DNA from: an uncultured virus (IMG/VR IMGVR_UViG_3300018475_001996)
Lineage: Duplodnaviria > Heunggongvirae > Uroviricota > Caudoviricetes
Reading direction: 5' to 3' (one strand)
DNA: 64,000 nt
IMG/VR virus record: IMGVR_UViG_3300018475_001996
Location: 1-64,000 of that record
Shown piece after piece: positions 1 to 15,721 of this stretch (positions are counted from its first letter, which is position 1; each line of letters starts with the position of its first letter). The translations under genes and the position numbers were made by a program. The notes under the pieces are model-generated. The model did not search any database. It was not told where the DNA came from and saw nothing but the letters and a program-made list of their open reading frames with translations.

Positions 1-31
1 ATGAGTTGGTAGAGCAGTTGTTTATTTTTTA

Positions 32-102
32 CGCTTCCACCTGGACTCGAACCAAGAAATCCGGACTACTAAACCGGCATTTTACCATTGAATTATAGAA
101 GC
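32..102 (-). tRNA. tRNA-Thr(AGT), A34 anticodon, no encoded CCA
   Basis: Reverse complement folds as GCTTCTA/TGGAAGC acceptor, anticodon arm CCGGT-TTAGTAG-TCCGG, T arm CTTGG-TTCGAGT-CCAGG. Confidence 0.85.
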
Positions 103-110
103 TAAAAATT

Positions 111-180
111 TGGCGGGCCGTAAAACCTTTTGATTACCAATCAACTGCTCATCTGAGCTAAATAGGAACGACCTATGCCA
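111..180 (-). pseudogene. degenerate tRNA-Thr(GGT)-like element
   Basis: TAGCTCAGATGAGCA D-like arm, GTTGA-TTGGTAA-TCAAA anticodon arm and 3' CCA, but no T-loop and no good acceptor pairing. Confidence 0.5.
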
Positions 181-183
181 TTA

Positions 184-266
184 TCAGGGTAGCAGGATTC
201 GAACCTGCGATGTCACGAGGACGCTAGCTCCCGAAGCTAGTGGCAAACCAACCTGCCGCTACCCTG
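184..266 (-). tRNA. tRNA-Pro(CGG) with extended variable region
   Basis: CAGGGTA/TACCCTG acceptor, CTAGC-TTCGGGA-GCTAG anticodon arm, GCAGG-TTCGAAT-CCTGC T arm, ~15-nt variable region. Confidence 0.85.
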
Positions 267-280
267 TTTTAATTTGTTCG

Positions 281-353
281 TCAGAGTGGCTGGGCTCGAA
301 CCAGCGACCCCTCGCATCCTAGGCGAGCTCTCTACCAACTGAGTTACACTCTG
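281..353 (-). tRNA. tRNA-Pro(AGG), A34 anticodon
   Basis: CAGAGTG/CACTCTG acceptor, CTCGC-CTAGGAT-GCGAG anticodon arm, canonical D and T arms. Confidence 0.9.
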
Positions 354-1124
354 TTATTCAAACACATTTACCAAATTTTTATTTGGTAAAAAATGCTTAC
401 GTTTTTGTTCATCATGTTTACTATAGATTGGAATATATTTTTTAAACTTATTATGTAAAGCAATTTTAGATATTCCAAGTTCAATAGCCATATCTTCTAG
501 TTTGTTATAATTACCAGAATGATATTTATTCCATAACTTTTCAGCCAATATTTTTCCATTATCATGAAGTAATTTTATCCAAGCAGCTTTATTTATTGTT
601 ATACTATACTTACCAGATTTTTTTACTTTAATAATACTAGTTTCTCCATGAAAAAGATTTCGACCTTCAATCCAAAATGGTTCTAGTGGTTTTTCTTTAA
701 ACTTTTTAGATTCTCCAGTATTACGATTTGTATACCATTTAGTTCCAAATTGTGAATTTCTTTTTCCTGATTGGCTTATACTTGTTAATTTACTTATTGC
801 CGTAGAAAATTCAATTCTTAATTTTTCATAAACACGCGAATTAATATATCGTTTATGATTTTCATTAATACCTTGCATTCTCCATAATGCACATAACATT
901 TTATTTCTTTCAATAGTTCCTTTCTCATACATTTTAACAAGTAACCAATGACAGATAAAATGTTCTCTAGCAGTTAACTTAACAAGATTTTCTTTTTCGT
1001 TAGTTCCTCCTAATGATTTAGGTTGAATATGATGTTTTTCAAAATAACCTAAACTTCGCTTCCCATTTTCATTCTCCGTTTTTGCTTTTTCAATTATTTT
1101 ATAATATATGTTTTTGTAATTCAT
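354..1124 (-). mobile_element. free-standing HNH homing endonuclease inside tRNA array 1
   Basis: EKHHIQPKSLGGTNEKENLVKLTAREHFICHWLL HNH motif, NUMOD-like GKRNSQFGTKW, C-terminal HTH-like segment; flanked by tRNAs. Confidence 0.85.
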
Positions 1125-1179
1125 ATATTATATATAATTTTTCATTTCCCGAACTTGCAGAATACAAGTTAACAGTTAA

Positions 1180-1263
1180 CTGATAGGGTTGGATTCGAAC
1201 CAACGGCGGGCTTTCGCCAACGGCTTAACAGGCCGCCCCCTGCTACCACTCGGGTACCTACCA
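1180..1263 (-). tRNA. tRNA-Asn(GTT) with a long, class-II-like variable arm
   Basis: TGGTAGG/CCTATCA acceptor with G73, GCGGC-CTGTTAA-GCCGT anticodon arm, GGC-GAAA-GCC variable hairpin. Confidence 0.85.
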
Positions 1264-1272
1264 ATAATTTAG

Positions 1273-1352
1273 CTGACTACAACGGACTCGAACCAATATC
1301 TCTTCTCTATGCATCGAGAAGCGCTCTGACCAAAAAATTGAGCTAGTAGCCA
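1273..1352 (-). tRNA. tRNA-like element with aberrant anticodon loop (identity undetermined)
   Basis: TGGCTAC/GTAGTCA acceptor, D arm and TTCGAGT T-loop; anticodon arm CTTCTC-GATGCATA-GAGAAG is not a 5-bp/7-nt arm. Confidence 0.6.
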
Positions 1353-1392
1353 AAAATAAAAAATCCTGTAAGTTTTTATATCTTACAGGATT
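1352..1392 (-). terminator. intrinsic terminator (attenuator) directly upstream of tRNA array 1
   Basis: Perfect 11-bp stem AATCCTGTAAG/CTTACAGGATT followed by TTTTATTTTT. Confidence 0.85.
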
Positions 1393-1427
1393 CGTTTAAA
1401 TTCTCGTTTTATTCGATGAACCAAAAA

Positions 1428-1490
1428 CTAATCCTGTAGTACCTCAGGGTTATTCGGATTGACGGTATTTGTGTTCATCGTGAAAGTCAT
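1428..1490 (-). CDS. putative attenuator leader peptide MTFTMNTNTVNPNNPEVLQD (Thr/Asn/Pro-rich)
   Basis: 20-codon ORF after purine-rich AAGAGAGAA; its 3' end TACAGGATT is complementary to the terminator 5' arm. Confidence 0.8.
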   Translation of the reverse strand: MTFTMNTNTVNPNNPEVLQD

Positions 1491-1509
1491 TTTGTTTTCT
1501 CTCTTTTAA

Positions 1510-1591
1510 TATTATATATAAAAATTTTTTTGTTGTTTTTGCTTTTTGTTTTAACGTTGTTAAATATAGTAAAGTTTTTTCCTTTTGTAAA
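1510..1591 (-). promoter_or_regulatory. tandem promoters for array 1: TTTACA-17-TATATT and TATATATAAT
   Basis: -35 at 1586-1591, -10 at 1563-1568, TATATATAAT at ~1511-1520; same layout upstream of array 2. Confidence 0.7.
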
Positions 1592-1610
1592 CCCCTAAAA
1601 AGATTTTTTT

Positions 1611-2168
1611 TTAAAGGTCAGGTTGTCTTTCTGCTTCTTCTGCCATTTTCTCAAGTTTGTTATTCAGCAGGCCGAATACAAGACCCAATACGCCGCCGAT
1701 AAAATGTGCACCATGGCCGATACCATCGTTGGCATTGATATTGGAAAGTTCAGGAATGAGCTTCAAGAGAATAAGCACGATACAAGTAAACGAGATTCCA
1801 GTATTTTCCTTACAGAAACAGTGAAGCAGGATAAACATAAAACAAATATCCGACATACCGATTCCTGCAACGTTACGTAACGAACCAACGTAACTTGTTG
1901 CCAGGGTGGTCAAGATAATCATAATTACAGTTCTGATAATTCCGTAACGACGTTCGATTACCGGACCAAGCAAGGCGATAATGAAAATATTTGACATCCA
2001 ATGACTGGAAATATCAGCATGGACGAGGGTTGTAGTAATCCAAGTCCAGCTAAAATTTGAGGTCATTGTACATGCAGACTTCAATGCCGGAACAGCCGTA
2101 ATGATAAAGCTACTGATAATGAGGACTGCAGTGATAATTTCATTCTTGAAGAAGTTACTAATTTTCAT
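1611..2168 (-). CDS. rhomboid-family intramembrane serine protease
   Basis: Several TM segments, HxxxxHxxxN motif, GMS catalytic Ser, AHFIGG catalytic His. Confidence 0.8.
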   Translation of the reverse strand: MKISNFFKNEIITAVLIISSFIITAVPALKSACTMTSNFSWTWITTTLVHADISSHWMSNIFIIALLGPVIERRYGIIRTVIMIILTTLATSYVGSLRNVAGIGMSDICFMFILLHCFCKENTGISFTCIVLILLKLIPELSNINANDGIGHGAHFIGGVLGLVFGLLNNKLEKMAEEAERQPDL

Positions 2169-2220
2169 GACCTATAATATAGTAAAATAGGCCCAATTAG
2201 TAAATACTTTTTATTTAGTC

Positions 2221-2970
2221 TTACTTCCAAAAACAGTAAAGACACTGATGTTTACATCTGGCCGGCTTTACATTAAGAATCTGTTTCTTGGCCAGACACA
2301 TACAATCACCTCGTTGCTTATTTTCTGGTTGACCATATTCTGAAATATCTACGCCAAGTATAGTCAGGTCAGCATAACTTGCGCAACCGATTTGTGTAAC
2401 CAGGTTTGTACTGAACTTCTGTTCGGCACAGGATTCAAAAACAAATATGTCTTTGAAATTAGAAAGAGTATCTTCCACTTTCTGGAAATATTCATTAGAC
2501 GCAGTGAACGTATTCCAAGGAACTGTAATAGTAGAATTCTTAGAAATACGTTCCTTTACATGGTTATACATATCAATCATGGAAATACGGCAACGGACCT
2601 TTTTCTTTATACTGACTAGATATGATTTCCACAGATTCAATACATTTACAGTATTATTTAAGATGTCGTCATTGAACGGCATGATAGGATCTACTCTGAG
2701 AACATAATGAGAAATCGGAAAACCGCGTTCGATTAATTTCTTAAACTGTTCAAATTCATGTTCAGTAGATTTAACGTTTGGTTCAAGAACAGAATTTCCT
2801 TGTCCTGTAACAGTATGATGAAAAATTACCCTATCTTGGACGATGAGTAACTTTTCAATCATTTCATCGGAAAGTTCTTTAGAAATAATGATATTTGCTT
2901 CTAAGAGTTTTACTTCCCAATCAGAAACAAAACATGGGTCAAACGTTTCTGTTATTCCGATTTGTTTCAT
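2221..2970 (-). CDS. DUF1848-like protein (radical-SAM-related, C-terminal Cys cluster)
   Basis: LEPNV, LRVDPI, SCAE, QRGDCMC and CKHQCLYC motifs; likely start MKQIG. Confidence 0.65.
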   Translation of the reverse strand: MKQIGITETFDPCFVSDWEVKLLEANIIISKELSDEMIEKLLIVQDRVIFHHTVTGQGNSVLEPNVKSTEHEFEQFKKLIERGFPISHYVLRVDPIMPFNDDILNNTVNVLNLWKSYLVSIKKKVRCRISMIDMYNHVKERISKNSTITVPWNTFTASNEYFQKVEDTLSNFKDIFVFESCAEQKFSTNLVTQIGCASYADLTILGVDISEYGQPENKQRGDCMCLAKKQILNVKPARCKHQCLYCFWK

Positions 2971-2971
2971 T

Positions 2972-3415
2972 TTAATCCTTATAAAGCTGGTATTTCTTAC
3001 TAAGTTTATGGCTGATTTCATCCGACAACGGTTTAAACCAGATTCCTACGCGACAACGACCAACACCGTTTTCATCAGTAAATTCCGGAGTAAGTTCAGT
3101 CTTACATACATCGTCGATAAAACCATAATCAGTACCTTCAACAAGACCGAGTTCTTTAGCAATATCAACAACCTTCATCAAATGATTAAGGTTCTTTGCT
3201 TCACAAATAGTCTTCGTGAAGATACCGTTAATATAATCTGACATTATATCATTGTCGATAACTATCGATACCAAAGTACCGGGACCGTCATTAAATGGTC
3301 TGTTTCCAGATTTGATAAGATTCATCCAGTAACATTCTGCACAATGCCCTATCATGGCGGCCAGTTTACCACCTGTAAGATGTAAATCTTTTCGAATAAT
3401 AAATAAACGTCTCAT
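2972..3415 (-). CDS. pth2: peptidyl-tRNA hydrolase, Pth2 family
   Basis: IIRKDLHLTGGKLAAMIGH N-terminal signature, D..xTE motif. Confidence 0.8.
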   Translation of the reverse strand: MRRLFIIRKDLHLTGGKLAAMIGHCAECYWMNLIKSGNRPFNDGPGTLVSIVIDNDIMSDYINGIFTKTICEAKNLNHLMKVVDIAKELGLVEGTDYGFIDDVCKTELTPEFTDENGVGRCRVGIWFKPLSDEISHKLSKKYQLYKD

Positions 3416-3427
3416 ATTAAAACCACT

Positions 3428-3775
3428 TTACTTCACATAGTTTTGTGAAATTATCTTTTTAGTTGTTGAATATTGGAATACTTTGATTTGACTTGGGTCA
3501 TGTTTGTTATAAAACCTACAAGTGCTGCCAACGCCAAAAACAGTTTCTTCTTCCCAGTCTGCCGTAGGTAACAATGTACAGCGATTACCGCTATATTTAG
3601 GGCAAATCTGGTACATATCATACTTACTATCTTCATCAATCTTATAGTTGATATAATATGCGAGACCACCGTTCAATACGGCAATACCCAGAATTATAAT
3701 ATATATCGAACTATAATGACGAAAATGATCGCCAATAATATAAAACATATTTTTAAAACTATAACTCATAGCCAA
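3428..3775 (-). CDS. hypothetical membrane protein
   Basis: ORF in operon context with one TM segment. Confidence 0.55.
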   Translation of the reverse strand: MAMSYSFKNMFYIIGDHFRHYSSIYIIILGIAVLNGGLAYYINYKIDEDSKYDMYQICPKYSGNRCTLLPTADWEEETVFGVGSTCRFYNKHDPSQIKVFQYSTTKKIISQNYVK

Positions 3776-4134
3776 TCCTTTATAGCGTTAAGAAACTTGA
3801 TAAGTTCAGGCATAGAATAATATCTATCTTCGACATTCCCAATACAATAGGTATCAACACCGTTATCATATTGTTCGTTAATATTCCATGTATATTCAAA
3901 CGGATGGTCTTCATGAACAAATACAGAAATATCATAACCGTGTCCGAAATCAAGCTTTACGGCATTTGAATATACCTGAGAAATCTTTGTAGGAAACTCA
4001 AGTTCCAAACGTTTCTTAAGAGTATCGACATTTGGTTTCAGTCGTTCTCTTTCAGCCTGAAGCTCTTTACCGTATTCCTCGATAACTTCATCCATACGGC
4101 GCTTTTCTTCTTCTGTTAATAATATTTCTTGCAT
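3766..4134 (-). CDS. hypothetical protein
   Basis: ORF with RBS, tightly packed. Confidence 0.6.
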   Translation of the reverse strand: MQEILLTEEEKRRMDEVIEEYGKELQAERERLKPNVDTLKKRLELEFPTKISQVYSNAVKLDFGHGYDISVFVHEDHPFEYTWNINEQYDNGVDTYCIGNVEDRYYSMPELIKFLNAIKDWL

Positions 4135-4302
4135 TTGATTACCTTTTCAGTTGTTTAGGATCCTTCTTATCGAAATATTCCCAAATTTCGATATTAGATA
4201 GTTTTCGCTTAGTCTTGACATTTGTCTTATGCAACCACATAAAACAACGCAAGCGATTCAACTGGTGTTTTAACAGTTCAATTTCTTTATCTTTTTCATC
4301 CA

Positions 4303-5493
4303 TTAGAATGCAGCCTTGAAATTATAAACCGGCTTGATAATCTTTTCGATAGAACAAGTAGGTTCAATATTCAACATGATTTCTTCCATCGGCTTATAGG
4401 CCATAGGAGACTCATCGATAGTCGCAGAAGAAACACAAGAGGTAAAGATTCCCTTCATTGCTTCCTTATAATCCTTCATGGAAATAGAATTCTTGGCATC
4501 TGCACGAGTCATCAAACGACCGGCACCATGAGGAGCAGAATAGTTCTATTCCGGATTTCCCTTACCGACGCAAATCAAAGAACCATCACGCATATTCATC
4601 GGAATAATGACACGTTCGCCTTCCTGTGCAGAAATAGAACCCTTACGGAGAATCATATTCTTGAGGTCGATATAGTTATGGATAGTTTCAAATTTTTCTA
4701 CAACCTTGAATCCCATTTCCTTGACGATAACATCAAGCATGGCTGCACGGTTCATAACTGCAAACTGCTGGACAATTTCCATATCATGCAGATAACCTTC
4801 CATGTGCTCACCAGTCAAATAAGACAAATTCTTAGGAACGGAGAAATGGTCATAATCCTTCATGAGTTCCTTAATTTCTGCATCAGTCTTTCCTTGATTC
4901 TTATACTTAGCAATTTCGGCACCACGAATGGCTGTCAAATCAGCACAATCCTTGATTGCGATATTCTGCCAGTATTCACAAGTAGCTACGCCCAAATGGC
5001 GTGAACCGGAATGGATAACAACATAGAAAGCACCATCGTCGTCCTTATCTACTTCAATGAAATGGTTGCCTCCGCCGAGTGAACCTATAGATAAAAGCTC
5101 TTCACGGCGAACATCTGCAATAAGCTGTTCAAACTTTTCATCGAATTCATTACCGAAACGGTGACGGTTAGTACGATGTTCCTTACCGGACGGAATCTTT
5201 TCCTTGATAACCTTATCGAGCTTACCAAATTCGATAAACTTATCCTTGAGCTTTGCAACCAACATTCCGCAACCAATATCGACTCCAACAAGATTAGGAA
5301 CAACCTTATCCTTGATAGTCATAGTGGTTCCGACAGTACAATCCTTACCCGCATGCACGTCAGGCATGATAGCGACATTAACATCCCTTGCCCAACATTG
5401 ACACATCATATTCAAAATCTGTGAATATGCAGCATTATCGATGTTATCGGTAAAAACCTTAGCTGTATTATATTTTCCCTGTATATCTAACAT
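4303..5493 (-). CDS. rtcB: RtcB RNA ligase interrupted by one in-frame TAG (4546-4548)
   Basis: MPDVHAG, VGVDIGCG, GGGNHFIE, HSGSR, HNY and RKG motifs; frame continues GNPE*NYSAPHGAGR...DESPMAYK. Confidence 0.9.
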
Positions 5494-5502
5494 AAAAATT
5501 CC

Positions 5503-5748
5503 TTAAACTGGTGTGTCGTCATTAACAACTTTCTGAACTTTACCATGGAATGTACCAGGTGTAATATATTCAGATACAACGACATCCGTAATGAGTTCAT
5601 TATCAAATAAAAGCTGAATTTTTTCTTGAGTTACATCTTCAACAGTTTTTCCAAGAAAAAAATCAGGCATTTCTTTCATAGTTCTTTCAGAAACAAGCTT
5701 AAACTTCAAATGTTCCTTCAGAGCTACTTTCAATTCATCATTCTGCAT
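5503..5748 (-). CDS. hypothetical protein
   Basis: ORF with GAGG RBS. Confidence 0.55.
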   Translation of the reverse strand: MQNDELKVALKEHLKFKLVSERTMKEMPDFFLGKTVEDVTQEKIQLLFDNELITDVVVSEYITPGTFHGKVQKVVNDDTPV

Positions 5749-5757
5749 ATTTTTCCT

Positions 5758-6063
5758 CTATCTTGTCACTTTCGGTAAAAATGTCCAGAAAGCTACAGAA
5801 TCCCACGGTTCATGGTCAGAATCCTTATCATAACAGGTATCTTCTACCCAAGTCCAGTCAAAATGACCATCGTCATAATAGGCTCTACCTACTGCACGTA
5901 AATCATAGCTTCCGTCTTTATAAAGAACCCATAACATCTTACCCAACATATAGTCATGCGGTTCCTTATCTAAACTATACCAAGTCTGTCCAGGAGTATG
6001 AACAAACTTGGTATTTTCAGGTAAACTTTCTAATAATTTCTTATTGTCTTCAACGTAAGACAT
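5758..6063 (-). CDS. hypothetical protein
   Basis: ORF in operon. Confidence 0.55.
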   Translation of the reverse strand: MSYVEDNKKLLESLPENTKFVHTPGQTWYSLDKEPHDYMLGKMLWVLYKDGSYDLRAVGRAYYDDGHFDWTWVEDTCYDKDSDHEPWDSVAFWTFLPKVTR

Positions 6064-6325
6064 AATTCGTTATATTCCTAACAACCATACCGTCATTGCA
6101 TTTAAAGTTAGTTACATTGGTTACACCGACAGTAACTACTTCATGCTTTCCGATACAGACATGTTTAAACACTCCATTCGTAAAAATATCGAGACGTTCC
6201 TTGCCCATATCGGATTCCAAAAGTCCCTGTGGATGAACATCACATCCATTTAAGGAATAACCAATAACCACAAAAACAACACTGACTAAAACGATTTCGC
6301 CCAAAATTCTTAAAAACTTCTTCAT
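6050..6325 (-). CDS. hypothetical exported or lipoprotein-like protein
   Basis: N-terminal hydrophobic segment ending LNGC. Confidence 0.5.
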   Translation of the reverse strand: MKKFLRILGEIVLVSVVFVVIGYSLNGCDVHPQGLLESDMGKERLDIFTNGVFKHVCIGKHEVVTVGVTNVTNFKCNDGMVVRNITNYVLR

Positions 6326-6327
6326 CG

Positions 6328-7032
6328 TTAAGCCTTCTTAATCATTTCAAAAATATCTTCACACTTCTTGTTTTCCGCATCACGTGCTGCTTCAGCGTCA
6401 AGGCGTGCCTCGTTTTTTTCAAGCCAGTTCATATACGGTTCAACAACACGAATCGTATCATATTCATATTTTGCACCTTCATCCAGCTTAAACTGCTTAA
6501 GCACATAGTTCTTATATTCAGGCAAATACTTTAACGGACACTTAGCTTCAAGGAATTCAAAATAATCCTTAATTTCATTGGTCTTAATGCAATTACCAAA
6601 AACATAGTTAGTTTCACCGCGCTGTGTTGCAAGAGTCGGGTTAAATACAAAATCCTTATTCTTTCTATAGATTTCAATACAACGCTTGATTGAAGCTTCT
6701 GCCTTTTCAGTAATGCCGTTAATAATAGCAAGAGCACATTCCTTACCGTGATCAGTAAGCTTGTCGTCAATAAAAACCGTACCCGTAGTATTAAGCCAAT
6801 GGAAATCAGCCATCGGACGACCGACAATGAACTCACTAGTCTTATAATCCGGCTTATCCGCATCTACAGACTTAAACGTAAGTTCGTTCAATTCTTCAAA
6901 AATATCAGTACCCTTAATACGGACACATTCATTTTCTACGTCGTAATAGAAATTTTCCTTACGTTTCATATCTTCATTGAGAGATTCGAAAGTATGAAGA
7001 TTGTAAATTTTCTTTTTGAAGAAGTTAAACAT
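6328..7032 (-). CDS. hypothetical protein
   Basis: 234-aa ORF with AGGA RBS, downstream of a promoter. Confidence 0.65.
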   Translation of the reverse strand: MFNFFKKKIYNLHTFESLNEDMKRKENFYYDVENECVRIKGTDIFEELNELTFKSVDADKPDYKTSEFIVGRPMADFHWLNTTGTVFIDDKLTDHGKECALAIINGITEKAEASIKRCIEIYRKNKDFVFNPTLATQRGETNYVFGNCIKTNEIKDYFEFLEAKCPLKYLPEYKNYVLKQFKLDEGAKYEYDTIRVVEPYMNWLEKNEARLDAEAARDAENKKCEDIFEMIKKA

Positions 7033-7058
7033 GTGTTGTTCCTTTTGGTTATGTCCAT

Positions 7059-7095
7059 AATATAGAAAAAAGGGTGACTATTGTCAACCCTTTTT
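7059..7095 (-). promoter_or_regulatory. overlapping terminator hairpin and sigma70-like promoter (TTGACA-17-TATATT)
   Basis: Hairpin AAAAAGGGTTGAC-AATA-GTCACCCTTTTT contains the -35 box; module recurs many times. Confidence 0.7.
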
Positions 7096-7324
7096 CTCAA
7101 AGACACTTATGATTTCTTTATGAACAATATCAGATTCTACATTCAACCATGCCTTTACTTCGTTCAATACATTCATGATTTCTTCAGAACGTTCGCCGAA
7201 CTTATCTTTAACCATGGCATTATTAAAGTTCAAATAAGAAACAAGAGTATTTATGTAACCATTTATATTTTCAAACTGGCTAGGTACTCCCCAGCGATTT
7301 TTTCGTTTTTCTACCATAAATTAC

Positions 7325-7738
7325 CTAATCTTCGTCAATTAAATCTGTATACTTATCGGCCAAAGAATTGGGATCTTTAATTTCATCTTCTTCCTGTAAA
7401 ACGACCTTGAACTTGGAAGCAACTGGGTCATAGCCAAACTTTCGCTTGACTAACGATAACAAATGCTTTGCATAATGCATATTAGGAACTAGTATATCCT
7501 TTTCATCGTAAATACTGCCTACAGATTCCAATGCAATCACAGTAAAGTCATATTTTTTAGCCAGTTCTTCAGCATTATAATATACGCTTTTCCAATCCGG
7601 TTTAATCAGACCAAAGAATGACGGATCCTTCTTGTACTGTACAACATAATACGGTTCCTTTCCATGATGCATGTTTTTAAACCTGAAATCATCGTCATAC
7701 TTGGAAAGATAATCTACAGAAATAATCCTAAATTTCAT
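7325..7738 (-). CDS. hypothetical protein
   Basis: ORF in operon. Confidence 0.55.
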   Translation of the reverse strand: MKFRIISVDYLSKYDDDFRFKNMHHGKEPYYVVQYKKDPSFFGLIKPDWKSVYYNAEELAKKYDFTVIALESVGSIYDEKDILVPNMHYAKHLLSLVKRKFGYDPVASKFKVVLQEEDEIKDPNSLADKYTDLIDED

Positions 7739-7739
7739 T

Positions 7740-8177
7740 CTAGTTTCCTTCGAACTTTTGCTTCAGCTTAAGAAACAAATTATATTCTTTTTCAGCATCA
7801 GCTTTAGCTAACGCTTCTTCTTCTTGACGTTCACGCTCTTCTTCTTCGCGACGCTTCTGCTCCCAATATCCCTTATGCCACTTTTGGAATTCCTTAGTAG
7901 CTTCTTCAGTATTACCGTCAAGATACTTCAGGATAATAGAAGTAGGAACAGGAAAACAATAATCTTCTCCTTCTCCCATGATTACTTCTTCCACACAAAG
8001 TTCGGTTGTATTTTCGCCGTATTTCATGCTATTAAAATACCAACCGCCTCGGCAATCAGCAAAAAATGAATGTACCATTTGGCGCAATTCATTTTCGACG
8101 ACATTAACTCTAGCTTGGGCTTTGTTAGCTTCTTGAAGTGCTTCGTTATATTCATGAAGTTTTTCTTGACCGGTCAT
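7740..8177 (-). CDS. hypothetical protein (paralog-like to 38442..38843)
   Basis: GGAG RBS; C-terminal coiled segment EKEYNLFLKLKQKFEG resembles EERALYVKLREKYG. Confidence 0.6.
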   Translation of the reverse strand: MTGQEKLHEYNEALQEANKAQARVNVVENELRQMVHSFFADCRGGWYFNSMKYGENTTELCVEEVIMGEGEDYCFPVPTSIILKYLDGNTEEATKEFQKWHKGYWEQKRREEEERERQEEEALAKADAEKEYNLFLKLKQKFEGN

Positions 8178-8185
8178 ATTAACTC

Positions 8186-8680
8186 CTAAAACGGATTTTT
8201 TGCATTAAGAACAGTATCTTGAATATCAGCTACAAGAGCATCAAAACCAGAATATTCCTTCTGAATCTTCGGAAGCAACTGGTTATACGTGATTTTTCCA
8301 CTGAAAATATCCTTAATCTTCAGATACCAGATAACCTTGAAGCTCTTATCCGGTAAACGAACGCGAATCTTCAAGTCATCACGCGTCGTTTCATCCTTTT
8401 CCATATGTTCACAGATTTCGACAGTGGAATACTTCGCGAGTTCATCCTTAATAGTATTGAATTCAGTATCTGTAAATGCTACATCCTGAGATTCCGGCGT
8501 AAAGAGTTCAGTACGGTGCATAATACAATATGCATCCATATCAAGGTCCGGTTTCTTAGCTCGAAGCGCCTGCAAGCGGTTCCATTCACGCGTATTGACC
8601 TGTTCAGGATGAGCGTTTACTGCATCGACGATATTCTGATAAAGTTTGTCCCAATGTGCCTGACGTTCTGCTGAAGCCAT
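8186..8680 (-). CDS. hypothetical protein
   Basis: Likely start MASAERQ after AAAGGA. Confidence 0.6.
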   Translation of the reverse strand: MASAERQAHWDKLYQNIVDAVNAHPEQVNTREWNRLQALRAKKPDLDMDAYCIMHRTELFTPESQDVAFTDTEFNTIKDELAKYSTVEICEHMEKDETTRDDLKIRVRLPDKSFKVIWYLKIKDIFSGKITYNQLLPKIQKEYSGFDALVADIQDTVLNAKNPF

Positions 8681-8748
8681 AGTTTTTCCTTTTGTTAAAG
8701 TTTTTCTATAATATAATAAAAAGGTTGACATTCGTCAACCCTTTTTAG

Positions 8749-8837
8749 TGGACCCGACGAGATTCGAACTCGCGACCCATCGCTTAAAAGGCGATTGCTC
8801 TACGATGTTGCCATCTAACCAACTGAGCTACAGATCC
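8749..8837 (-). tRNA. tRNA-Lys(TTT) with a hairpin inserted in the D-loop
   Basis: ATCGC-CTTTTAA-GCGAT anticodon arm; D-loop contains GATG-GCAA-CATC. Confidence 0.85.
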
Positions 8838-8843
8838 ATATAA

Positions 8844-8931
8844 TTGAGGCGGCTGGATTTGAACCAGCGATGTGTCATTAACCGTACAGGATTCAAAGTC
8901 CCGCGCCTTCACCGGACTAGGCAACGCCTCA
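8844..8931 (-). tRNA. tRNA-Gln(TTG) with extended variable region
   Basis: TGAGGCG/CGCCTCA acceptor, CGGGA-CTTTGAA-TCCTG anticodon arm, ~18-nt variable region. Confidence 0.85.
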
Positions 8932-8940
8932 ATAATTTAG

Positions 8941-9014
8941 TACCCGAGGTGAGACTCGAACTCACAGGTGCGGATTAGAAGTCCGCTCGTTTGATCCTAT
9001 TAACGGACCCGGGC
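8941..9014 (-). tRNA. tRNA-Arg(TCT)
   Basis: GCGGA-CTTCTAA-TCCGC anticodon arm, GTGAG-TTCGAGT-CTCAC T arm. Confidence 0.85.
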
Positions 9015-9020
9015 AAAATA

Positions 9021-9106
9021 TCGGCATACAAGGAGTCGAACCTTCCCGGACCGCCCTGGTGTTTGCTACGGGCCGGTTTATAAGACCGGTCCAAGGGAGT
9101 ATGCCA
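9021..9106 (-). tRNA. non-canonical tRNA-Ile(TAT), no D arm, large variable arm
   Basis: GGCATAC/GTATGCC acceptor, CCGGT-CTTATAA-ACCGG anticodon arm, TTCGACT T-loop; only ~9-10 nt where the D arm should be. Confidence 0.7.
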
Positions 9107-9145
9107 ATGTAGTTTGTTTAAAGTGAGTAGCTCTCTCACTGTTCG

Positions 9146-9217
9146 TGGACCTATCCAGACTCGAACTGGAATCCGAAGATTAAAAGTCTCCTCGTCTACC
9201 TATTGACATATAGATCC
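9146..9217 (-). tRNA. tRNA-Lys(TTT)
   Basis: GGATCTA/TAGGTCC acceptor, GGAGA-CTTTTAA-TCTTC anticodon arm. Confidence 0.85.
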
Positions 9218-9224
9218 AAAGTAA

Positions 9225-9300
9225 TTGGGGCAGAGAGATTCGAACTCCCGAATAACGATTTCAGAGACCGTTGCCTTAAACCAGACTTGGCGATACCCCA
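9225..9300 (-). tRNA. tRNA-Gln(CTG)
   Basis: TGGGGTA acceptor, ACGGT-CTCTGAA-ATCGT anticodon arm, canonical T arm. Confidence 0.9.
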
Positions 9301-9306
9301 GTATAT

Positions 9307-9339
9307 AAAAAACAGTTCCTGTATTGCTACAGGAACCGT
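9307..9339 (-). terminator. intrinsic terminator (attenuator) directly upstream of tRNA array 2
   Basis: ACGGTTCCTGTA-GCAA-TACAGGAACTGT followed by TTTTT. Confidence 0.85.
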
Positions 9340-9366
9340 CTAATCAGATAAAGTGAAACTTATCGT

Positions 9367-9444
9367 CTATTCGCTACCCATAGCAAAACACACAGCAACT
9401 TGCTGTTTTCTTATCTGTTTTACTTGTTTAACGAACCTTAACAT
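9367..9444 (-). CDS. putative attenuator leader peptide MLRFVKQVKQIRKQQVAVCFAMGSE (Lys/Gln/Ile/Arg-rich)
   Basis: 25-codon ORF with AAAGGA RBS; TTGCTATGGG near its end pairs with CCTGTAGCAA of the terminator. Confidence 0.8.
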   Translation of the reverse strand: MLRFVKQVKQIRKQQVAVCFAMGSE

Positions 9445-9464
9445 TTTTCTGTTATCCTTTTGAT

Positions 9465-9530
9465 ATTATATATAGTTTTTATTTTTTAATTTTCGCTATA
9501 TAATATAGCAAAAACTTTTTCTTTTGTAAA
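9465..9530 (-). promoter_or_regulatory. tandem promoters for array 2: TTTACA-17-TATATT and TATATATAAT
   Basis: -35 at 9525-9530, -10 at 9502-9507; shares TTTTAGGGGTTTACAAAAG with the array 1 promoter. Confidence 0.7.
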
Positions 9531-9549
9531 CCCCTAAAAGGAAAATTTT

Positions 9550-9990
9550 TTAGTGGTTATCGTTATCAATGATAATCTTGGATTCAGGACAGAATACAAA
9601 ATTAAACAAAGCTTCCGGGTCACGAATGAATGCGCCAAGCATTGTTGCACGATAAACGCTCTGATGGTCAATATAACCTGAAATACCTTCAGTTGTTTCA
9701 GGAAGAACCAATGTAACCTGCTTGGAAGCAAAATATTCGATAACCTTATCTTTTTCAGTTTCATAACAGTCTGAAAGACCGCCATCCATACTGACAGCTA
9801 CAAGCCAGTAATCCAACAATTCAGCAGGGGTTTCCAATACCTCATAACCCCAGTCATAGTTTCCGGAACCTTCTACTTTGATAGTGCAAGGTTCTACATG
9901 AAGGTTCGCGTATGCGCTCGCACACGGGTAACAAATTTCATGCTGAGACGAACTATTTGTTTCAAACACACCAACTCTAAGAGTTTTCAT
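9550..9990 (-). CDS. hypothetical protein with RxGVFETNSSSxH motif
   Basis: N-terminal FETNSSS motif and GYIDHQS; same gene block as the radical SAM gene. Confidence 0.65.
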   Translation of the reverse strand: MKTLRVGVFETNSSSQHEICYPCASAYANLHVEPCTIKVEGSGNYDWGYEVLETPAELLDYWLVAVSMDGGLSDCYETEKDKVIEYFASKQVTLVLPETTEGISGYIDHQSVYRATMLGAFIRDPEALFNFVFCPESKIIIDNDNH

Positions 9991-10002
9991 CTTTTCCTCA
10001 CT

Positions 10003-10590
10003 TTAAATTACATAGATTGAATAAACTTCGTTTAGGTCTATATTTTCATACTTAGTTGAAAGTTCACTGTCTGGAATAATATCGAACCTTTTATGCCCGT
10101 CTTTAAATTCGACTTGAACAACGGAATATGGAGTAAATTCATGTTTCTTATCTTTAACAATATCGTAAAGAACATTTAATGACGCCAACCATTCACCGTA
10201 GTTTTTATAATGCGCACGATAAACGGTATTTAACGGAGTTTCTTCACGTTGCCAAATCTTTGAATCATCAAATCGTTTTTCAATTTCCTTATCCAAATCA
10301 TAAAACATAATATACATATTTTTGGAGGCGCCAATATGACCTCCACATGAAAATTTTGTTTTACAACCGTTATCGTTAAGAACCATCAGCGGGTATGCAA
10401 TGGCCTCGTCGATAACATTAAAACCTGCTTCGGCCAGCTGAGTTAAAAGCTTCATACGGTCAGAAGCACGGCAACTCAAGTATCGTCTTTTCTTGAAATC
10501 CACAAAAGTCTGGATTTCTGCAGTTGCATAATGAATTTCACTATCGGTCATATTTTTATCCCAATTTATCGAGCATATCGACAAGTTCAA
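10003..10590 (-). CDS. hypothetical protein (TKFSCGGH motif, TYW3-like fold possible)
   Basis: IDxxI..LN..G.KTKFSCGGH. Confidence 0.5.
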   Translation of the reverse strand: MNLSICSINWDKNMTDSEIHYATAEIQTFVDFKKRRYLSCRASDRMKLLTQLAEAGFNVIDEAIAYPLMVLNDNGCKTKFSCGGHIGASKNMYIMFYDLDKEIEKRFDDSKIWQREETPLNTVYRAHYKNYGEWLASLNVLYDIVKDKKHEFTPYSVVQVEFKDGHKRFDIIPDSELSTKYENIDLNEVYSIYVI

Positions 10591-10906
10591 CGTTTTTTAT
10601 TTTAGCCATTACACGCTCAGGTACTCTTTCATTTTCAAAAATATAAGCAAGATTTACACAGGGCTTTCCTAGGACACACAAATATAGGTCGTTCATTACG
10701 GACTTATTATAATATGTCCAAGTTTGATACCACGAATCATTTATTTTTTCTTTTCCATATACGGATAGGTATTTTTTACCGTTATAGTCTTCAAGGGTAT
10801 GTATACTAAGATTGGTGTCTCCCCAATACGGATAATAAACCCTATATTCATTATTTTTAAGAAAATAGGCTACATAAACGTTTTTGCTATAATTCCAACC
10901 AATCAT
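10556..10906 (-). CDS. hypothetical protein
   Basis: ORF in operon. Confidence 0.5.
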   Translation of the reverse strand: MIGWNYSKNVYVAYFLKNNEYRVYYPYWGDTNLSIHTLEDYNGKKYLSVYGKEKINDSWYQTWTYYNKSVMNDLYLCVLGKPCVNLAYIFENERVPERVMAKIKNVELVDMLDKLG

Positions 10907-11265
10907 TTTAAATTACTTTCAATCTGTAAAAGTGTTTTAATATTACTGAGTTTATAATATGCCTTTTCACAAAGTTCTTTATTGTAATTAAACAAGTCTT
11001 CAAAATGCAAATACTTCTTTCCTTCTATCGAAAGAAATAACGACCTGCTGAAATCTGTATTTTCAAATACAGTCCAATGCTCGTATGACCTATCATCTAT
11101 ATTTTTTAGGCCACTTATTGCCCAAGACCCGGCATGAAAATTACGTGACATTGCATTAAATAATTTTTCAAAATTATCCAACAGTGGATAACAAACACGA
11201 AATAACTCTTTTCCGCGTTTATCTTCTAAACCAAAATATACGTCTTTAGTAACTAAAACTAGCAT
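10903..11265 (-). CDS. hypothetical protein
   Basis: ORF in operon. Confidence 0.5.
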   Translation of the reverse strand: MLVLVTKDVYFGLEDKRGKELFRVCYPLLDNFEKLFNAMSRNFHAGSWAISGLKNIDDRSYEHWTVFENTDFSRSLFLSIEGKKYLHFEDLFNYNKELCEKAYYKLSNIKTLLQIESNLK

Positions 11266-12296
11266 TTTTTAATAGACAGTTTAAAAAGTTCTCTGATATT
11301 TTCATCGCCATTAAACGACCACCGCTTATCCATAGGTGCGGTAGAACTTCTGGCTACTTGCATATTCGGTACGTCGATATACATGGTAGAACAGGTAATA
11401 TTATACATGTCGTCCATCGTATCATCGTCATGACCCTGGAATAGCGTATTCCATGTTGCCTGGTTAGTCCGTACGGCCTTTTGCGGATTAACCTGATAAA
11501 TACCTAGGTCATCAAAAGAAATGGTCTGTGCCTTGAATGTGAGCAAATGGAGCACATCCTTTAGCCAGTTGATATTCCGTTCAATCTTCTCGTAATTCTT
11601 AAACTTATGTTCATGTCCACGACGAAGATCCTTATAACCGAGGAACAGAATCTTTCTGTTCTTGATTACGTCTACATCCTTTTCTTCAAAAATACCGGCA
11701 ATGAACTGAAGAACGACATTATTACCCAAAGTATCAAGAAATTCAAAATCTTCTTTTTTACTGGAATCGGTTACAGAAACACCGATACCGTTTACAAGAT
11801 TTTCAGATACAATCTTCATGAGAGTATCTTTAAACGGTTTCAAATGCTGCTGGTTAACCGTAATGTTTGTAATGATTCCTTGTTTCTTCAAAAGCTCGAG
11901 GAACCAAATCAAGTCAGGATGTTCGAAAATATTTCCGCCGCCGATAGCGACTTCGGTACCAGGCTGTAAGGTTTTAATCATCGGTTCAATTCTTTTCAAA
12001 TCACCATGTTTTCCGTTAATCGTCGAACCTTCATGGCAATATTTACAACCGCCATTACATACATCCGTAATTTTAATATCAAAATTCTCACAGAACTCAT
12101 AAGTCATATGGTCTGTATCGACATCTACCCAACGGTTAACTCTTTTACCGTCAGAATTCATTTCATTGATATAATAACCAGTTTCTTTTAACTTTGAACC
12201 ATCTTCATAAAGAATAGTTCTATGATTACCATTTACATACTGGCCTAAAATCTTTTTGCCCTTGGTAAATAGTTCAATAACTTCATCCTGCTTCAT
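11259..12296 (-). CDS. radical SAM protein
   Basis: CNGGCKYCHE (CxxxCxxC) and AIGGG motifs. Confidence 0.85.
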   Translation of the reverse strand: MKQDEVIELFTKGKKILGQYVNGNHRTILYEDGSKLKETGYYINEMNSDGKRVNRWVDVDTDHMTYEFCENFDIKITDVCNGGCKYCHEGSTINGKHGDLKRIEPMIKTLQPGTEVAIGGGNIFEHPDLIWFLELLKKQGIITNITVNQQHLKPFKDTLMKIVSENLVNGIGVSVTDSSKKEDFEFLDTLGNNVVLQFIAGIFEEKDVDVIKNRKILFLGYKDLRRGHEHKFKNYEKIERNINWLKDVLHLLTFKAQTISFDDLGIYQVNPQKAVRTNQATWNTLFQGHDDDTMDDMYNITCSTMYIDVPNMQVARSSTAPMDKRWSFNGDENIRELFKLSIKKC

Positions 12297-12341
12297 AAAC
12301 CTAAATATAGTAAAAATAAAACGGGCTGTAAACCCGTTTTA

Positions 12342-12668
12342 TTAAACCAAGCGTCCGCACTTATCGAACAGTTCAGGATGTTTATCCTTAACCCGTTCAT
12401 ATTCGTTCATAAGCTGAACATAATGACGTGACGCGTCGTCCAGATAAACCATCTTCTGGTCAAGTTCGTCCTTTATAGCCTTCATCGGAATTGCTTCAAA
12501 CGGAAGGAAAACAAAAGACGGACTAATATAATCCGGATGCTGTGCCTTAACAGTCGAAAGCTTTTCAAACTGTTCATTATAATGTTCACGTAATGTATTC
12601 AAACGATTATTGGCTGTTTCAAGATTAGCCTTTTTACGTTCCATACTTTCAGTTAATGTTTCTACCAT
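12342..12668 (-). CDS. hypothetical protein
   Basis: ORF with GAGG RBS. Confidence 0.55.
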   Translation of the reverse strand: MVETLTESMERKKANLETANNRLNTLREHYNEQFEKLSTVKAQHPDYISPSFVFLPFEAIPMKAIKDELDQKMVYLDDASRHYVQLMNEYERVKDKHPELFDKCGRLV

Positions 12669-12675
12669 ATTTTCC

Positions 12676-13196
12676 TCACAAATTTTTATCTATGACTTTT
12701 TCTAAATATTTATTATAACAGATGACCTCATGTTTGACTAAATCTTTTGCTTTCAATTCGTCCAACAATACCTGGGCCTTTTTCATGCTGAGAATGTTCC
12801 CGCTTTCAAATACTTCAACCGGAATACCGTTATATAATGTAGTTAATGTAAAATTCAAAAATACTACATTACTGTTAAACTTGAGCGCGAACTTCAGTCT
12901 ATCGCATATATCCGGATATTTATTACAATAACTCCAAGTAAAATATTCGATAAGGTCGTTACCTATGACGTTTAGTTTTCCGTCATGGATATTAAACCAA
13001 TTAGCTACGGCAAAACCACCGCCGATTACAGTACCAATGGCAAGTAGTATCGCAATAGTTCTAATAACATCATTTTCTGACTTACTGGCTATTGTAATCA
13101 AAACTGCACTAGATACCAGAGCAATACCGAATACTCCGCAGATAAAATACCAAAGGCCAGCTTTACTTGGTTTCAACCATTCAATGTTCTTCATAT
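12676..13196 (-). CDS. hypothetical membrane protein
   Basis: Two TM segments; likely start MKNIEW. Confidence 0.55.
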
Positions 13197-13624
13197 TAAA
13201 TATTCTGTAAAATTTCGTTAGTATACTGTTCGCTTGCAAACTTACAATAATCAAAAGCATCTACATTGGTAAGTCTTTTTCTGGCTTTCCTAATTTGATA
13301 AACCGTACAGATTCGAGCGGTCTCAGTATCAAAATATAGATATTCTTTCAATTTATCATCGTTCGGCTTATATAAAACCTTTATCTGGAAATTAAATGAA
13401 CGAGAAAACCATTTTGAACATTTATAACGTTTGTCGACATATACTGAACAGTTTTCAGGAAGATCATTATCCTTCATACTAACAAATAAATCATTCAGCT
13501 GATTGGCCAATTTTTCTAACATACGGTCATGTAAAGATGTTAAAACCATCGGAATTAAAACAGACAGCTGAATTGTTAGCGTTAGTAATTTAGTTACGAG
13601 TTCAAAAATTTCTACACCGCTCAT
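13196..13624 (-). CDS. hypothetical membrane protein
   Basis: N-terminal TM segment. Confidence 0.5.
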   Translation of the reverse strand: MSGVEIFELVTKLLTLTIQLSVLIPMVLTSLHDRMLEKLANQLNDLFVSMKDNDLPENCSVYVDKRYKCSKWFSRSFNFQIKVLYKPNDDKLKEYLYFDTETARICTVYQIRKARKRLTNVDAFDYCKFASEQYTNEILQNI

Positions 13625-13905
13625 TAAGGATTATCCTCCGCATATTCTTCAGCAGTGTTATAATGTTTCCAGTATGTGATATGGTGCTTTCCAGACCATG
13701 TACCCTTACAGATAACGTTATCCTTAAGCTTTGCAAGGATCTTTTCGAGATTTTCCTTTTCATCTACTTCAATCTTTGCAATATCCCAGCGAGGAAATTC
13801 TTTCCATTTACGCCAGTCAAAGCTATCCCATGGATTTTCGGAAGTTTTTTCAGCCTTCGTAGATACATCGGACGTATGTTTAAGTTCTGCTTCTACAATC
13901 TTCAT
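13624..13905 (-). CDS. hypothetical protein
   Basis: ORF directly downstream of a promoter. Confidence 0.55.
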   Translation of the reverse strand: MKIVEAELKHTSDVSTKAEKTSENPWDSFDWRKWKEFPRWDIAKIEVDEKENLEKILAKLKDNVICKGTWSGKHHITYWKHYNTAEEYAEDNP

Positions 13906-13973
13906 ACACTAAATATAATAAAAACTAGGCACTTTGTCAATGCCTAGTTTTATTTAATATGTTATTTCAGAAA

Positions 13974-14438
13974 TTACTTGCTACGAATGGTGAATTCGAA
14001 CGGCTTTTCCTCTTCAGTCTTCTGAATTGCCGGAATCGTAATGGTCAAAAGACCGTTTTCGATAACAGCGTCGAGCTTGTCGAGGTCGACCGTGTTAGGA
14101 ATCTTCCATGCGCCATGCTTAGTAATCTTAATCTTTTTGATTTCGACTAGACGCTTGCTGGCTTTTTCCTCTTCAGCCTTCTTTTCATCTTCTGTCTGTT
14201 CGTCTTCCTGAAGGTCGAAAATCAAGTAATTGACTCCATCCTTGACCTGCTTTGTAAGCTTTACGTTCTTTTCGGTCTTGCCAGGAATTGCCAACCTGAT
14301 AATATTCGTACCGTCTTCTTCGACAATCATATCTACCGGAAGAGTAATCTTCTTCATGGTTTCTTCGACAGGATTATATCCCTGCATTGTCAAGAATGGT
14401 GTGAAAAGAGAATCAAATACGTTAAATAATTCGTTCAT
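13974..14438 (-). CDS. small heat-shock protein (Hsp20/alpha-crystallin)
   Basis: PVDM...LAIPG and AVIENGLLTITIP motifs; likely start MNELF after AAAGGA. Confidence 0.85.
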   Translation of the reverse strand: MNELFNVFDSLFTPFLTMQGYNPVEETMKKITLPVDMIVEEDGTNIIRLAIPGKTEKNVKLTKQVKDGVNYLIFDLQEDEQTEDEKKAEEEKASKRLVEIKKIKITKHGAWKIPNTVDLDKLDAVIENGLLTITIPAIQKTEEEKPFEFTIRSK

Positions 14439-14575
14439 TTTATTTATCCTTTGGGACCGGTTTCCGTGTCCCTGTTCGCTTCCATTGTTATACCGAATTC
14501 CGAACTTTCGTGAATCCGGTTTCGGCCGTCGAAGCATAACGGCCAAAACTTCTCGTATTCGCTTTATTTATAATT

Positions 14576-15721
14576 TTATTTCGACGGTTCTTGCATTACC
14601 GCACCGGTATGGACATTGATGTCCCAATACTGCATGGCGTTACGGAACCATTCTACCTGTTCCAAAGAAATCGGAGCATAACGGTGATAGTCGATACCAA
14701 GGTCAAAACCGTTAGTCTTTGCAAAGTTTCTGCCATGGATATGTCCGAACAACGTAATATACTTATCCTTTCCGAATTTCTTATCTGCTTCTACAACATA
14801 AGGGTTGATAGGCTCATGTACGCAGAGATAGTTCTTCTTATTCGCAGTAAATGTGTAGTAATCTACGAATTCGACATTTTCGATACCCTTGGCGAGCTTC
14901 TTATACTTGTCGTAATCCCTACGTTCGTAGTTACCGCAAACCCAGATAAGCTTCTTGAAATTCAAGTTATTGATAATTTCCTTACAACGTTCGAATTCGC
15001 CGAAATCACCGCAATGAACAACCGTGTCCTGCATGGTTACGTTCTTATTCCAGTTAGAAATCATCTCAAGATCCATTTCGTCTACGTTGACAAACGGACG
15101 TCTGGAATAATTAAGAGTACGTTCCTGGCTGAAATGAGTATCGGATGTAAAATACATCGTACCCTTACGCTTGGTGGCGTCAACCGCATTCTTCAAGGTC
15201 TTATAAAGAGTAGATTCGTATTTCTTTCCATTTTCCTTGAGACGGACAGCAATATATTCGTTATGTTCCGCATTTTTCGGCCAGCCAAAGAAAGTATTTG
15301 GTTTCTTAAACCATTCGCCAAATTCAATATTGGTAGTACGAGCAGGATGTTCCTTGCTTCTAGGAATCCAGAATACAATAGCGGTAGCCGTAGACATAGC
15401 CGTATGTTCCCACCAGGTTTGCTGACCTAGAGCATCAGTACCGATAATCTTCTGATAATTTTCATTAGTCGGAGTCAATACAGTTCCGGTAAATCCAATC
15501 TTTTCAAGAAGGTCGAAGGCTTCATATCGCCAGTCGTCGGAATAATCCTTACGAGGGCATGGTCCAGCAAGAAAAATAGAATTCTTGCATTTTTCAATTT
15601 TGTTAAATTCACCCTTGGTATTACAAGGCTTGATAATTTTGAAGTGGTAGTTATTTTTCTTTTCATTAATCATAAAGCTAGGTACTTTATTGTTTAGGTA
15701 TTCATGTATTGTTTCTTTCAT
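14576..15721 (-). CDS. fusion of nucleoside 2-deoxyribosyltransferase-like domain and calcineurin-like phosphoesterase
   Basis: SIFLAGP...WE...TTNIEFG, then SDTHF, HCGDF, GNYE and GHIH motifs. Confidence 0.8.
   Translation of the reverse strand: MKETIHEYLNNKVPSFMINEKKNNYHFKIIKPCNTKGEFNKIEKCKNSIFLAGPCPRKDYSDDWRYEAFDLLEKIGFTGTVLTPTNENYQKIIGTDALGQQTWWEHTAMSTATAIVFWIPRSKEHPARTTNIEFGEWFKKPNTFFGWPKNAEHNEYIAVRLKENGKKYESTLYKTLKNAVDATKRKGTMYFTSDTHFSQERTLNYSRRPFVNVDEMDLEMISNWNKNVTMQDTVVHCGDFGEFERCKEIINNLNFKKLIWVCGNYERRDYDKYKKLAKGIENVEFVDYYTFTANKKNYLCVHEPINPYVVEADKKFGKDKYITLFGHIHGRNFAKTNGFDLGIDYHRYAPISLEQVEWFRNAMQYWDINVHTGAVMQEPSK

Follow-up and report, generated by a model that had tools for sequence, protein, structure and literature searches.

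A probable leader-peptide attenuator before the Asn/Pro/Thr tRNA array of an uncultured large phage

What is the role of a 20-codon open reading frame (ORF) that stands between a promoter and a terminator, directly before a block of phage tRNA genes? The question arises at one end of a 64,000-nucleotide stretch (the window) of the uncultured virus record IMGVR_UViG_3300018475_001996 (Caudoviricetes) in IMG/VR. The window makes up the first 64 kb of a contig 136.6 kb long (37.5% G+C), and all locus coordinates given here are on the minus strand. From the sequence, the element is probably a ribosome-mediated (leader-peptide) transcription attenuator that gates the tRNA array. The analysis establishes how the locus is built, that the leader codons match the array and have co-evolved with its content, and where the antiterminator lies and how well it is conserved; the attenuator reading fits every sequence-level test that was run.

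The leader ORF (1490-1428; ORF list and translation) comprises 20 codons and a TAG stop, encodes MTFTMNTNTVNPNNPEVLQD*, and is the sole ORF of at least 20 aa between the promoter and the terminator on the minus strand. The sigma-70-like promoter at 1597-1563 consists of GGGG and TTTACA (1591-1586), a 17-nt spacer and TATATT (1568-1563), with 10 of 12 consensus positions matched in a consensus scan. It is a member of a genome-wide promoter family; the core GGGGTTTACA has 15 matches within one mismatch in the 136.6-kb contig, and a (G/A)CTATATT -10 element follows most of those on the minus strand, including one before array 2. The A-rich untranslated stretch between promoter and leader contains a TATATATAATAT box (1520-1509), possibly a second promoter. 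This 11-mer occurs only three times in the 136.6 kb, before leader 2 (leader A), before the present leader (leader B) and abutting the start of an HNH ORF. A putative Shine-Dalgarno-like GAGAG, read by inspection, lies at 1503-1499, 8 nt 5' of the ATG; in other cassettes of the same design, AAAGG(A/T) occupies this position. A census found a Shine-Dalgarno motif at 55 of 129 crude ORFs of the contig, an ORF set too dirty to use.

The intrinsic terminator (1392-1352) is formed by AATCCTGTAAG (1392-1382), a 9-nt loop, CTTACAGGATT (1372-1362) and a T-run to 1352. Its 11-bp stem has an energy of -12.6 kcal/mol, and the hairpin was missed by the consensus terminator scan, whose loop limit was 8. 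Because the T-run ends at 1352, exactly where the first tRNA-like gene starts, there is no space for a promoter between them.

According to the preliminary description, the leader uses each of the four Thr codons once, five Asn codons, and the Pro codons CCG and CCT, and a check of the sequence bore this out. For the codon-match test, we used only the in-window tRNAs called by ARAGORN, with strict wobble, and took the expectation from 129 long ORFs of the contig. Of the 19 leader codons, 9 were decoded by the array, against 13.3% expected (binomial P=3.4e-4). At the amino-acid level, 11 of 19 residues matched, against 15.6% expected (P=2.9e-5). The match rises to 13/19 by hand count when Pro(CGG) and the Asn, Pro(TGG), Thr(TGT), Met and Val tRNAs beyond position 1 are included. 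The unmatched codons are TTC, GTC, GAG, CTA, CAG and GAT, and the last four of these six lie in or beside the antiterminator. We also considered that codon 3 (TTC or TAC) might track a Tyr(GTA) tRNA in the array; this was inconsistent, as G003, a related genome, has both and G006, another, has TAC with no called tRNA-Tyr.

The antiterminator strand TACAGGATT (1438-1430) runs from the last leader codons into the first base of the TAG and is a copy of the terminator 3' arm. It perfectly complements AATCCTGTA (1392-1384) over 9 bp, as had been claimed. Among all upstream sequence, it forms the best duplex with the terminator 5' arm (-12.0 kcal/mol), and none of 300 dinucleotide shuffles was as good. 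The pairing excludes the terminator and overlaps the stop codon, a placement that would let the position of the ribosome decide. TACAGGATT is unchanged in 5/5 orthologs. A second helix, P1, joins 1481-1467, within leader codons 4-8, to 1426-1413, directly 3' of the stop codon (ORF nucleotides 10-24 with nucleotides 2-15 past the stop). Its core pairs CGATGAAC with GTTCATCG at 1480-1473 and 1421-1414, where the earlier description had placed it. The extended pairing has -14.2 kcal/mol, 16 of 300 shuffles were as good, and P1 is part of the minimum-energy fold of the free full leader RNA. Relative to the G003-type ortholog, P1 shows two compensatory pairs, C1480-G1414 and G1479-C1415 both being replaced by U-A.

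In the mechanism that we propose, transcripts would start at the promoter, and perhaps also at the TATATATAATAT box, and polymerase would have to pass the terminator to reach the tRNA genes. A fast ribosome arriving at the leader stop would cover TACAGGATT, so that the terminator hairpin would form and transcription would stop. A ribosome delayed within the first two thirds of the leader, at Thr, Asn or Pro codons, would leave TACAGGATT free to pair with the terminator 5' arm, with read-through into the tRNAs as the expected outcome. P1 probably sequesters the antiterminator or pauses polymerase until the ribosome melts P1. A shortage of an isoacceptor, arising from the host pool, from phage demand or from host tRNA cleavage, would lead to more synthesis of those tRNAs. 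Because the leader codons are those read by the tRNAs behind the leader, the loop would be a negative feedback on decoding capacity.

We folded the leader RNA with the ribosome represented as a mask. In equilibrium folds of the full-length RNA, a ribosome over codons 7-11 lowered the terminator probability to 0.25-0.42, and one placed anywhere between codon 13 and the stop left it at 0.94-0.96. Such folds gave a clear switch for cassettes of the present type (B) only, and in most of the other cassettes described below the terminator remained at 0.9 or above throughout. Because the full-length equilibrium fold was thus not a useful test, an RNA truncated before the 3' arm was folded instead. 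In this RNA, the terminator 5' arm was paired with a probability of 0.81-0.83 for a ribosome at codons 1-13 and of 0.40-0.49 for a ribosome from codon 15 to the stop.

The leader is conserved as a reading frame, and the way in which its relatives vary suggests that it may be translated. A pattern search for relatives of leader B gave 96 matches, eight of which were true cassettes, and five orthologs were compared. All five stand before Asn/Pro/Thr arrays. The ORF is present and the frame is kept in five lineages, and the orthologs, from four other phage lineages, differ by a 3-nt indel that preserves the frame. In the tail PEVLQD, the differences fall at third codon positions only (GAG/GAA, GTA/GTG/GTT), with CTACAGGATTAG invariant. 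Contigs 90-99% alike to this DNA were found in animal-gut RNA libraries, and in all four runs (three studies) a contig spans the leader, the terminator and the first tRNA genes, a weak hint of transcription. A search of phage isolates with window positions 1-4000 returned only tRNA and HNH pieces and no relative of the leader; a search for related loci with a rhomboid ORF gave only two identical contigs.

The same design recurs before other tRNA arrays, as revealed by a promoter-motif scan in IMG/VR (25 stretches). The IMG/VR record G001 (411 kb, 98% complete) differs from the window by one mismatch in 9600 compared bases, continues past position 1, and has six cassettes. These are A (window array 2), before Gln/Lys/Arg tRNAs; B (this locus); C, Glu/Ala/Phe; D, Asp/Lys/Gly/His; E, Trp/Leu/Ser(GCT); and F, Tyr/Cys/Met/Ser(TCN). 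The complete genome G003 (424 kb) has seven. The search before the other arrays that had been suggested earlier yielded short ORF plus terminator cassettes, six to seven per genome, in which each leader fits its own array best. The cassettes share the promoter, the TATATATAATAT box upstream of the leader, often an ATG ACT start, and the terminator core TCCTGT...ACAGGA, and because of these common parts we regard them as paralogs and not as unrelated inventions.

This overturns one statement of the preliminary description, namely that the present leader is unrelated to leader 2 (9444-9367; cassette region 9310-9536), before array 2. Promoter, box and terminator core (TCCTGTA...TACAGGA) are common to the two, which are diverged paralogs. 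The accompanying statement that leader 2 follows the same logic holds in part: its codons match array 2 (9/24 against 12.7% expected, P=1.9e-3), and no antiterminator was found for it. By eye, the tRNA-like genes at 9107-9021 (TAT loop) and 8837-8746 (TTT loop) fit the leader 2 codons ATA and AAA.

The complete genome G008 (416 kb) and G006 were fetched after the tests on G001 and G003; seven of their 11 cassettes were found by a codon-blind script and the other four (C and D in G008, C and F in G006) by eye. The pairing of leaders with their own arrays is the single best permutation in every genome (1/720 in G001, 1/5040 in G003, 1/720 in G008 and 1/120 in G006). Over 26 leader-array pairs, the ORF frame yields 370 matched codons of 710 (52%); the two other frames yield 82/684 and 95/684 (12-14%). 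The orthologs in these family tests are kin and some rows are near-identical, a caveat on the figures. The G001 F-leader (L031:3299-3394) was read through an in-frame TAA in the match tests. This TAA lies at codon 9 and is absent from the G003 and G006 orthologs; the frame past it still has Cys, Ser, Tyr and Ile codons matched to the array.

The match extends to the choice among synonymous codons. Informative codons were those for an amino acid carried by the array whose synonymous codons are not all covered, and for 71 of the 82 the array itself carries the anticodon that reads them, where 44.2 were expected; none of 200,000 simulations reached this figure. For serine, leaders of arrays with Ser(GCT) use AGY and those of arrays with Ser(GGA/TGA/CGA) use TCN; for lysine, AAA goes with Lys(TTT) and AAG with Lys(CTT). 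These counts bear on an alternative in which the mechanism is the same but the signal is amino-acid supply, sensed as tRNA charging, so that the phage times its tRNA synthesis by the nutritional state of the host. A stalled ribosome cannot distinguish a missing tRNA from an uncharged one, as is established for attenuators of the trp and his type, and each leader mixes several amino acids. Nevertheless, we consider this signal unlikely, since the codon choice follows the isoacceptor and extra tRNA is no cure for amino-acid starvation.

Leaders also change together with their arrays. In G008, the E array gained Gln(CTG) and Cys(GCA), and its leader gained two CAG, TGT and TGC; the F array lost tRNA-Cys, and its leader has no Cys codon. 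F-leaders with three CAG codons (G003 and G006) stand before arrays with Gln(CTG), and the G001 F-leader, with one CAG, before an array with none. The C-leader has four Val codons in G008 and two in G006 (as in G001), and both the G008 and G006 arrays carry Val tRNAs. We shuffled arrays among orthologous leaders (25 pairs, six families, the single B1 left out); the shuffles gave 345.4 +/- 4.3 matched codons against 358 observed, and 254 of 100,000 reached the observed value. It is highly improbable, then, that there is no regulation, with a leaky terminator fixing the tRNA level and the small ORF being a by-product or coding for a peptide that serves some other purpose. The E-type leaders do resemble hydrophobic signal peptides. 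Yet a match specific to frame, own array and isoacceptor, together with co-evolution, is unexpected from a by-product or a peptide gene, and a natural variant permutes residues while keeping composition: in an RNA-library contig, CCT AAT replaces AAT CCG, which changes the peptide.

The polarity of the switch is indicated by where the parts lie. A hairpin with a T-run stands just 5' of the first tRNA in 13/13 cassettes of G001 and G003, and in 10 of the 13 the best partner of the terminator 5' arm lies over the leader's final codons or its stop. We therefore hold it decidedly unlikely that the polarity is reversed, so that leader translation is needed for read-through (positive feedback), or that control acts via Rho, RNA processing or transcript stability. 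The antiterminator strand at the stop codon is where a terminating ribosome sits, which argues for termination on fast translation, and the hairpin with its T-run is canonical. In favour of such control are the three cassettes with no detectable antiterminator, the long A-rich, G-poor 5' region conserved between cassettes, and the little switching in the equilibrium folds of most cassettes.

Several observations weigh against the attenuator reading itself. The antiterminator (-12.0 kcal/mol) is about as stable as the terminator (-12.6), which requires a kinetic switch; the terminator probability at equilibrium is never lower than 0.25. A ribosome stalled at CCG AAT AAC CCT, the last four matched sense codons, would itself mask the antiterminator (terminator probability 0.76-0.96), and these codons, lying so close to it, would be poorly sensed in the simple model. 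The ribosome-free folds conflict, the truncated RNA forming the antiterminator (0.83) and the full RNA forming P1 and the terminator. P1 is found in four of the five orthologs and is missing in L086 (-5.2 kcal/mol, with 141 of 300 shuffles as good). The Shine-Dalgarno sequence of this leader (GAGAG) is weak, and TTC and GTC have no matching tRNA. The RNA-library data are contigs that may include DNA and cannot prove a transcript. A promoter-like site inside the HNH ORF (459-432) could release the distal tRNAs from control. Across the family, the duplex search found no antiterminator in three of 13 cassettes (A in G001, A and B1 in G003), and no co-variation of leader with array appears within the B family by itself, where 108 of 120 permutations were as good. 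Some arrays have a promoter only and no leader, among them the sub-array past position 1 and others in G006 and in G008; no leader is visible before G006:1136 or G008c:6428.

It is possible, though short of probable, that the cassettes act as a per-isoacceptor homeostat, in which a phage of about 410 kb gauges decoding speed per codon class, each with its dedicated test ORF, and switches on only the tRNA block that is in short supply. Were this true, the tRNA arrays would be an inducible answer to host tRNA depletion (anticodon nucleases, host shut-off, codon-usage mismatch) and not a constitutive supplement, and leaders and arrays would be rewritten together when a tRNA gene changes block. 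Attenuation of tRNA genes, more generally, would account for how giant phages that carry about 50 tRNAs choose which to make, and when. The leader would be a readable signature of the decoders that a block should supply, phage tRNA arrays would be tied to tRNA-targeting host defences in a testable manner, and the stretch from leader ORF through terminator (about 140 nt) would be a compact sensor of how fast chosen codons are decoded. That leaders and arrays have changed together, with gains of Cys, Gln and Val, is unusual comparative evidence for a regulatory code.

The closest known systems are the leader-peptide attenuators that control amino-acid operons in enterobacteria: trp, his, leu, pheA, thr (Thr and Ile codons) and ilvGMEDA (Ile, Leu and Val codons). 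In common with these, the phage element has a promoter, a short ORF rich in the sensed codons, mutually exclusive hairpins, a terminator before the regulated genes, and several amino acids per leader. Unlike them, it would regulate tRNAs, the sensed molecules themselves, and not enzymes; its leader codons are chosen by isoacceptor, its antiterminator strand includes the stop codon, and it occurs in six to seven paralogous cassettes, each with its own codon set. In the E. coli pheST operon, the pheM leader attenuator controls phenylalanyl-tRNA synthetase. This is likewise leader-peptide attenuation of a translation-apparatus gene, with feedback on the decoding of one codon class, but it controls a synthetase, senses one amino acid and is cellular. 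An attenuator before the E. coli tRNA-Phe genes was not borne out at pheV of K-12, where only about 105 bases lie between this gene and its upstream neighbour and neither a leader ORF nor a terminator is evident by eye.

T-box riboswitches are similar in coupling antitermination to the state of tRNA and in acting on genes for translation and amino-acid supply. They differ in binding uncharged tRNA directly and needing no translation, and no T-box match was returned by Rfam for window positions 1-20000 (E up to 1) or 1-1420 (E up to 10). Phage tRNA sets are thought to offset codon-usage differences or host tRNA cleavage. The present phage fits these accounts as a large phage with its own decoders in blocks; the accounts concern the role of the tRNAs and not switching, whereas each block here has a predicted sensor. 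Full-text searches of the literature outside subscription journals, PMC3082878 and PMC7049720 included, gave no account of a leader-peptide attenuator before tRNA genes. The mechanism would be classic and its target apparently new: the known targets of leader-peptide attenuation are amino-acid enzymes and a single synthetase operon, and here it would act on tRNA genes, the sensed molecule being the product.

The array behind the leader begins with a tRNA-like element (1352-1273), directly 3' of the terminator, which the preliminary description did not list. It scores 35.4 bits with the Rfam tRNA model and has a 6-bp anticodon stem with an 8-nt loop. ARAGORN at a relaxed threshold returns '???', no ordinary anticodon is present, and the G003 ortholog has a closed hairpin at the anticodon arm; the element is probably not a decoder. 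The downstream tRNAs listed earlier were recovered for the most part. ARAGORN calls Asn(GTT), Pro(AGG) and Thr(AGT), Rfam supports Pro(CGG), and the Thr(GGT)-like element did not stand. tRNA-Asn(GTT) (1264-1179; ARAGORN and Rfam) has a long variable arm and shares about 89% identity with a tRNA-Asn annotated in Pseudomonas jumbo phages. tRNA-Pro(AGG) lies at 353-280 (Rfam 55.8 bits). tRNA-Pro(CGG) at 266-184 (Rfam 42.6 bits, loop UUCGGGA) has an 11-nt insertion in the variable region and receives no ARAGORN call at default settings. The doubtful 'Thr(GGT)-like' element (167-98) appears in the mitochondrial mode of ARAGORN only, and it was rejected as a tRNA since the bacterial mode and Rfam (E up to 10) give no call. 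tRNA-Thr(AGT) at 102-32 (Rfam 50.8 bits) is the last before position 1.

An HNH-endonuclease-like ORF of 256 aa (1124-354) is inserted in the array; its Pfam HNH score of 21.3 bits is borderline (cutoff 21.4). The RNA-library contig X2 is without an 819-nt stretch that holds this ORF and has 172 other letters instead, so the insertion is polymorphic. Positions 371-1110, within the ORF, are uncovered in four RNA-library runs, which proves nothing.

The earlier prediction of further tRNAs beyond position 1 was correct, with Thr(TGT), Met(CAT) and Val(TAC) all present in G001, behind a promoter of their own. Past position 1, G001 has in order a second HNH-like ORF, another promoter of this family, the tRNA genes Asn(GTT), Pro(TGG), Thr(TGT), Met(CAT) and Val(TAC), and a terminator. 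Because an HNH-like ORF and a separate promoter intervene, control by the present attenuator is not required, and these Asn/Pro/Thr/Met/Val tRNAs need not be under it. The sub-array thus has its own promoter and no leader. The tRNA array holds two HNH-like ORFs in all, at window 354-1124 and L028:12644-13367. About 3-4 kb beyond position 1 in G001 (L028:15560-16530), roughly 1 kb is ORF-free, runs from a family promoter to tRNA-Met and contains a second TATATATAATAT box; it looks like one or more structured RNAs.

Some of the tRNA genes are themselves unusual. Those with Asn(GTT) (1264-1179), Pro(CGG) (266-184) and Ile(TAT)-type (9107-9021) loops have long variable arms, which are unusual for these identities, and the best Rfam model for the gene at 9107-9021 is tRNA-Sec (30.6 bits, under the cutoff). 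Pro(AGG) at 353-280 and Thr(AGT) at 102-32 have A as the first anticodon base, which is rare in bacteria outside tRNA-Arg. Genes with a closed or abnormal anticodon arm occur at window 1273-1352, L029:10880-10953, L029:6069-6141, L013:1583-1656 and L015:1584-1657. By eye, the L013 and L015 copies have a 4-nt GCAA or GAAA loop; the other loci rest on ARAGORN '???' calls (2-letter anticodons) only. Some of these genes are placed between a promoter and a leader, and they could be processing handles or decoys. The word GTTCCTAT recurs beside odd or intron-bearing tRNA-like genes, at window ~158-151, L029:5239-5246, L034:6948-6955, L034:7031-7038 and L028:14469-14476. Elsewhere on the minus strand of the window, Rfam places a cow-rumen-2 RNA at 15845-15948 (94.5 bits), and a phage-borne tmRNA with the tag ANTYAMAA lies at 19054-19410 (133.5 bits).

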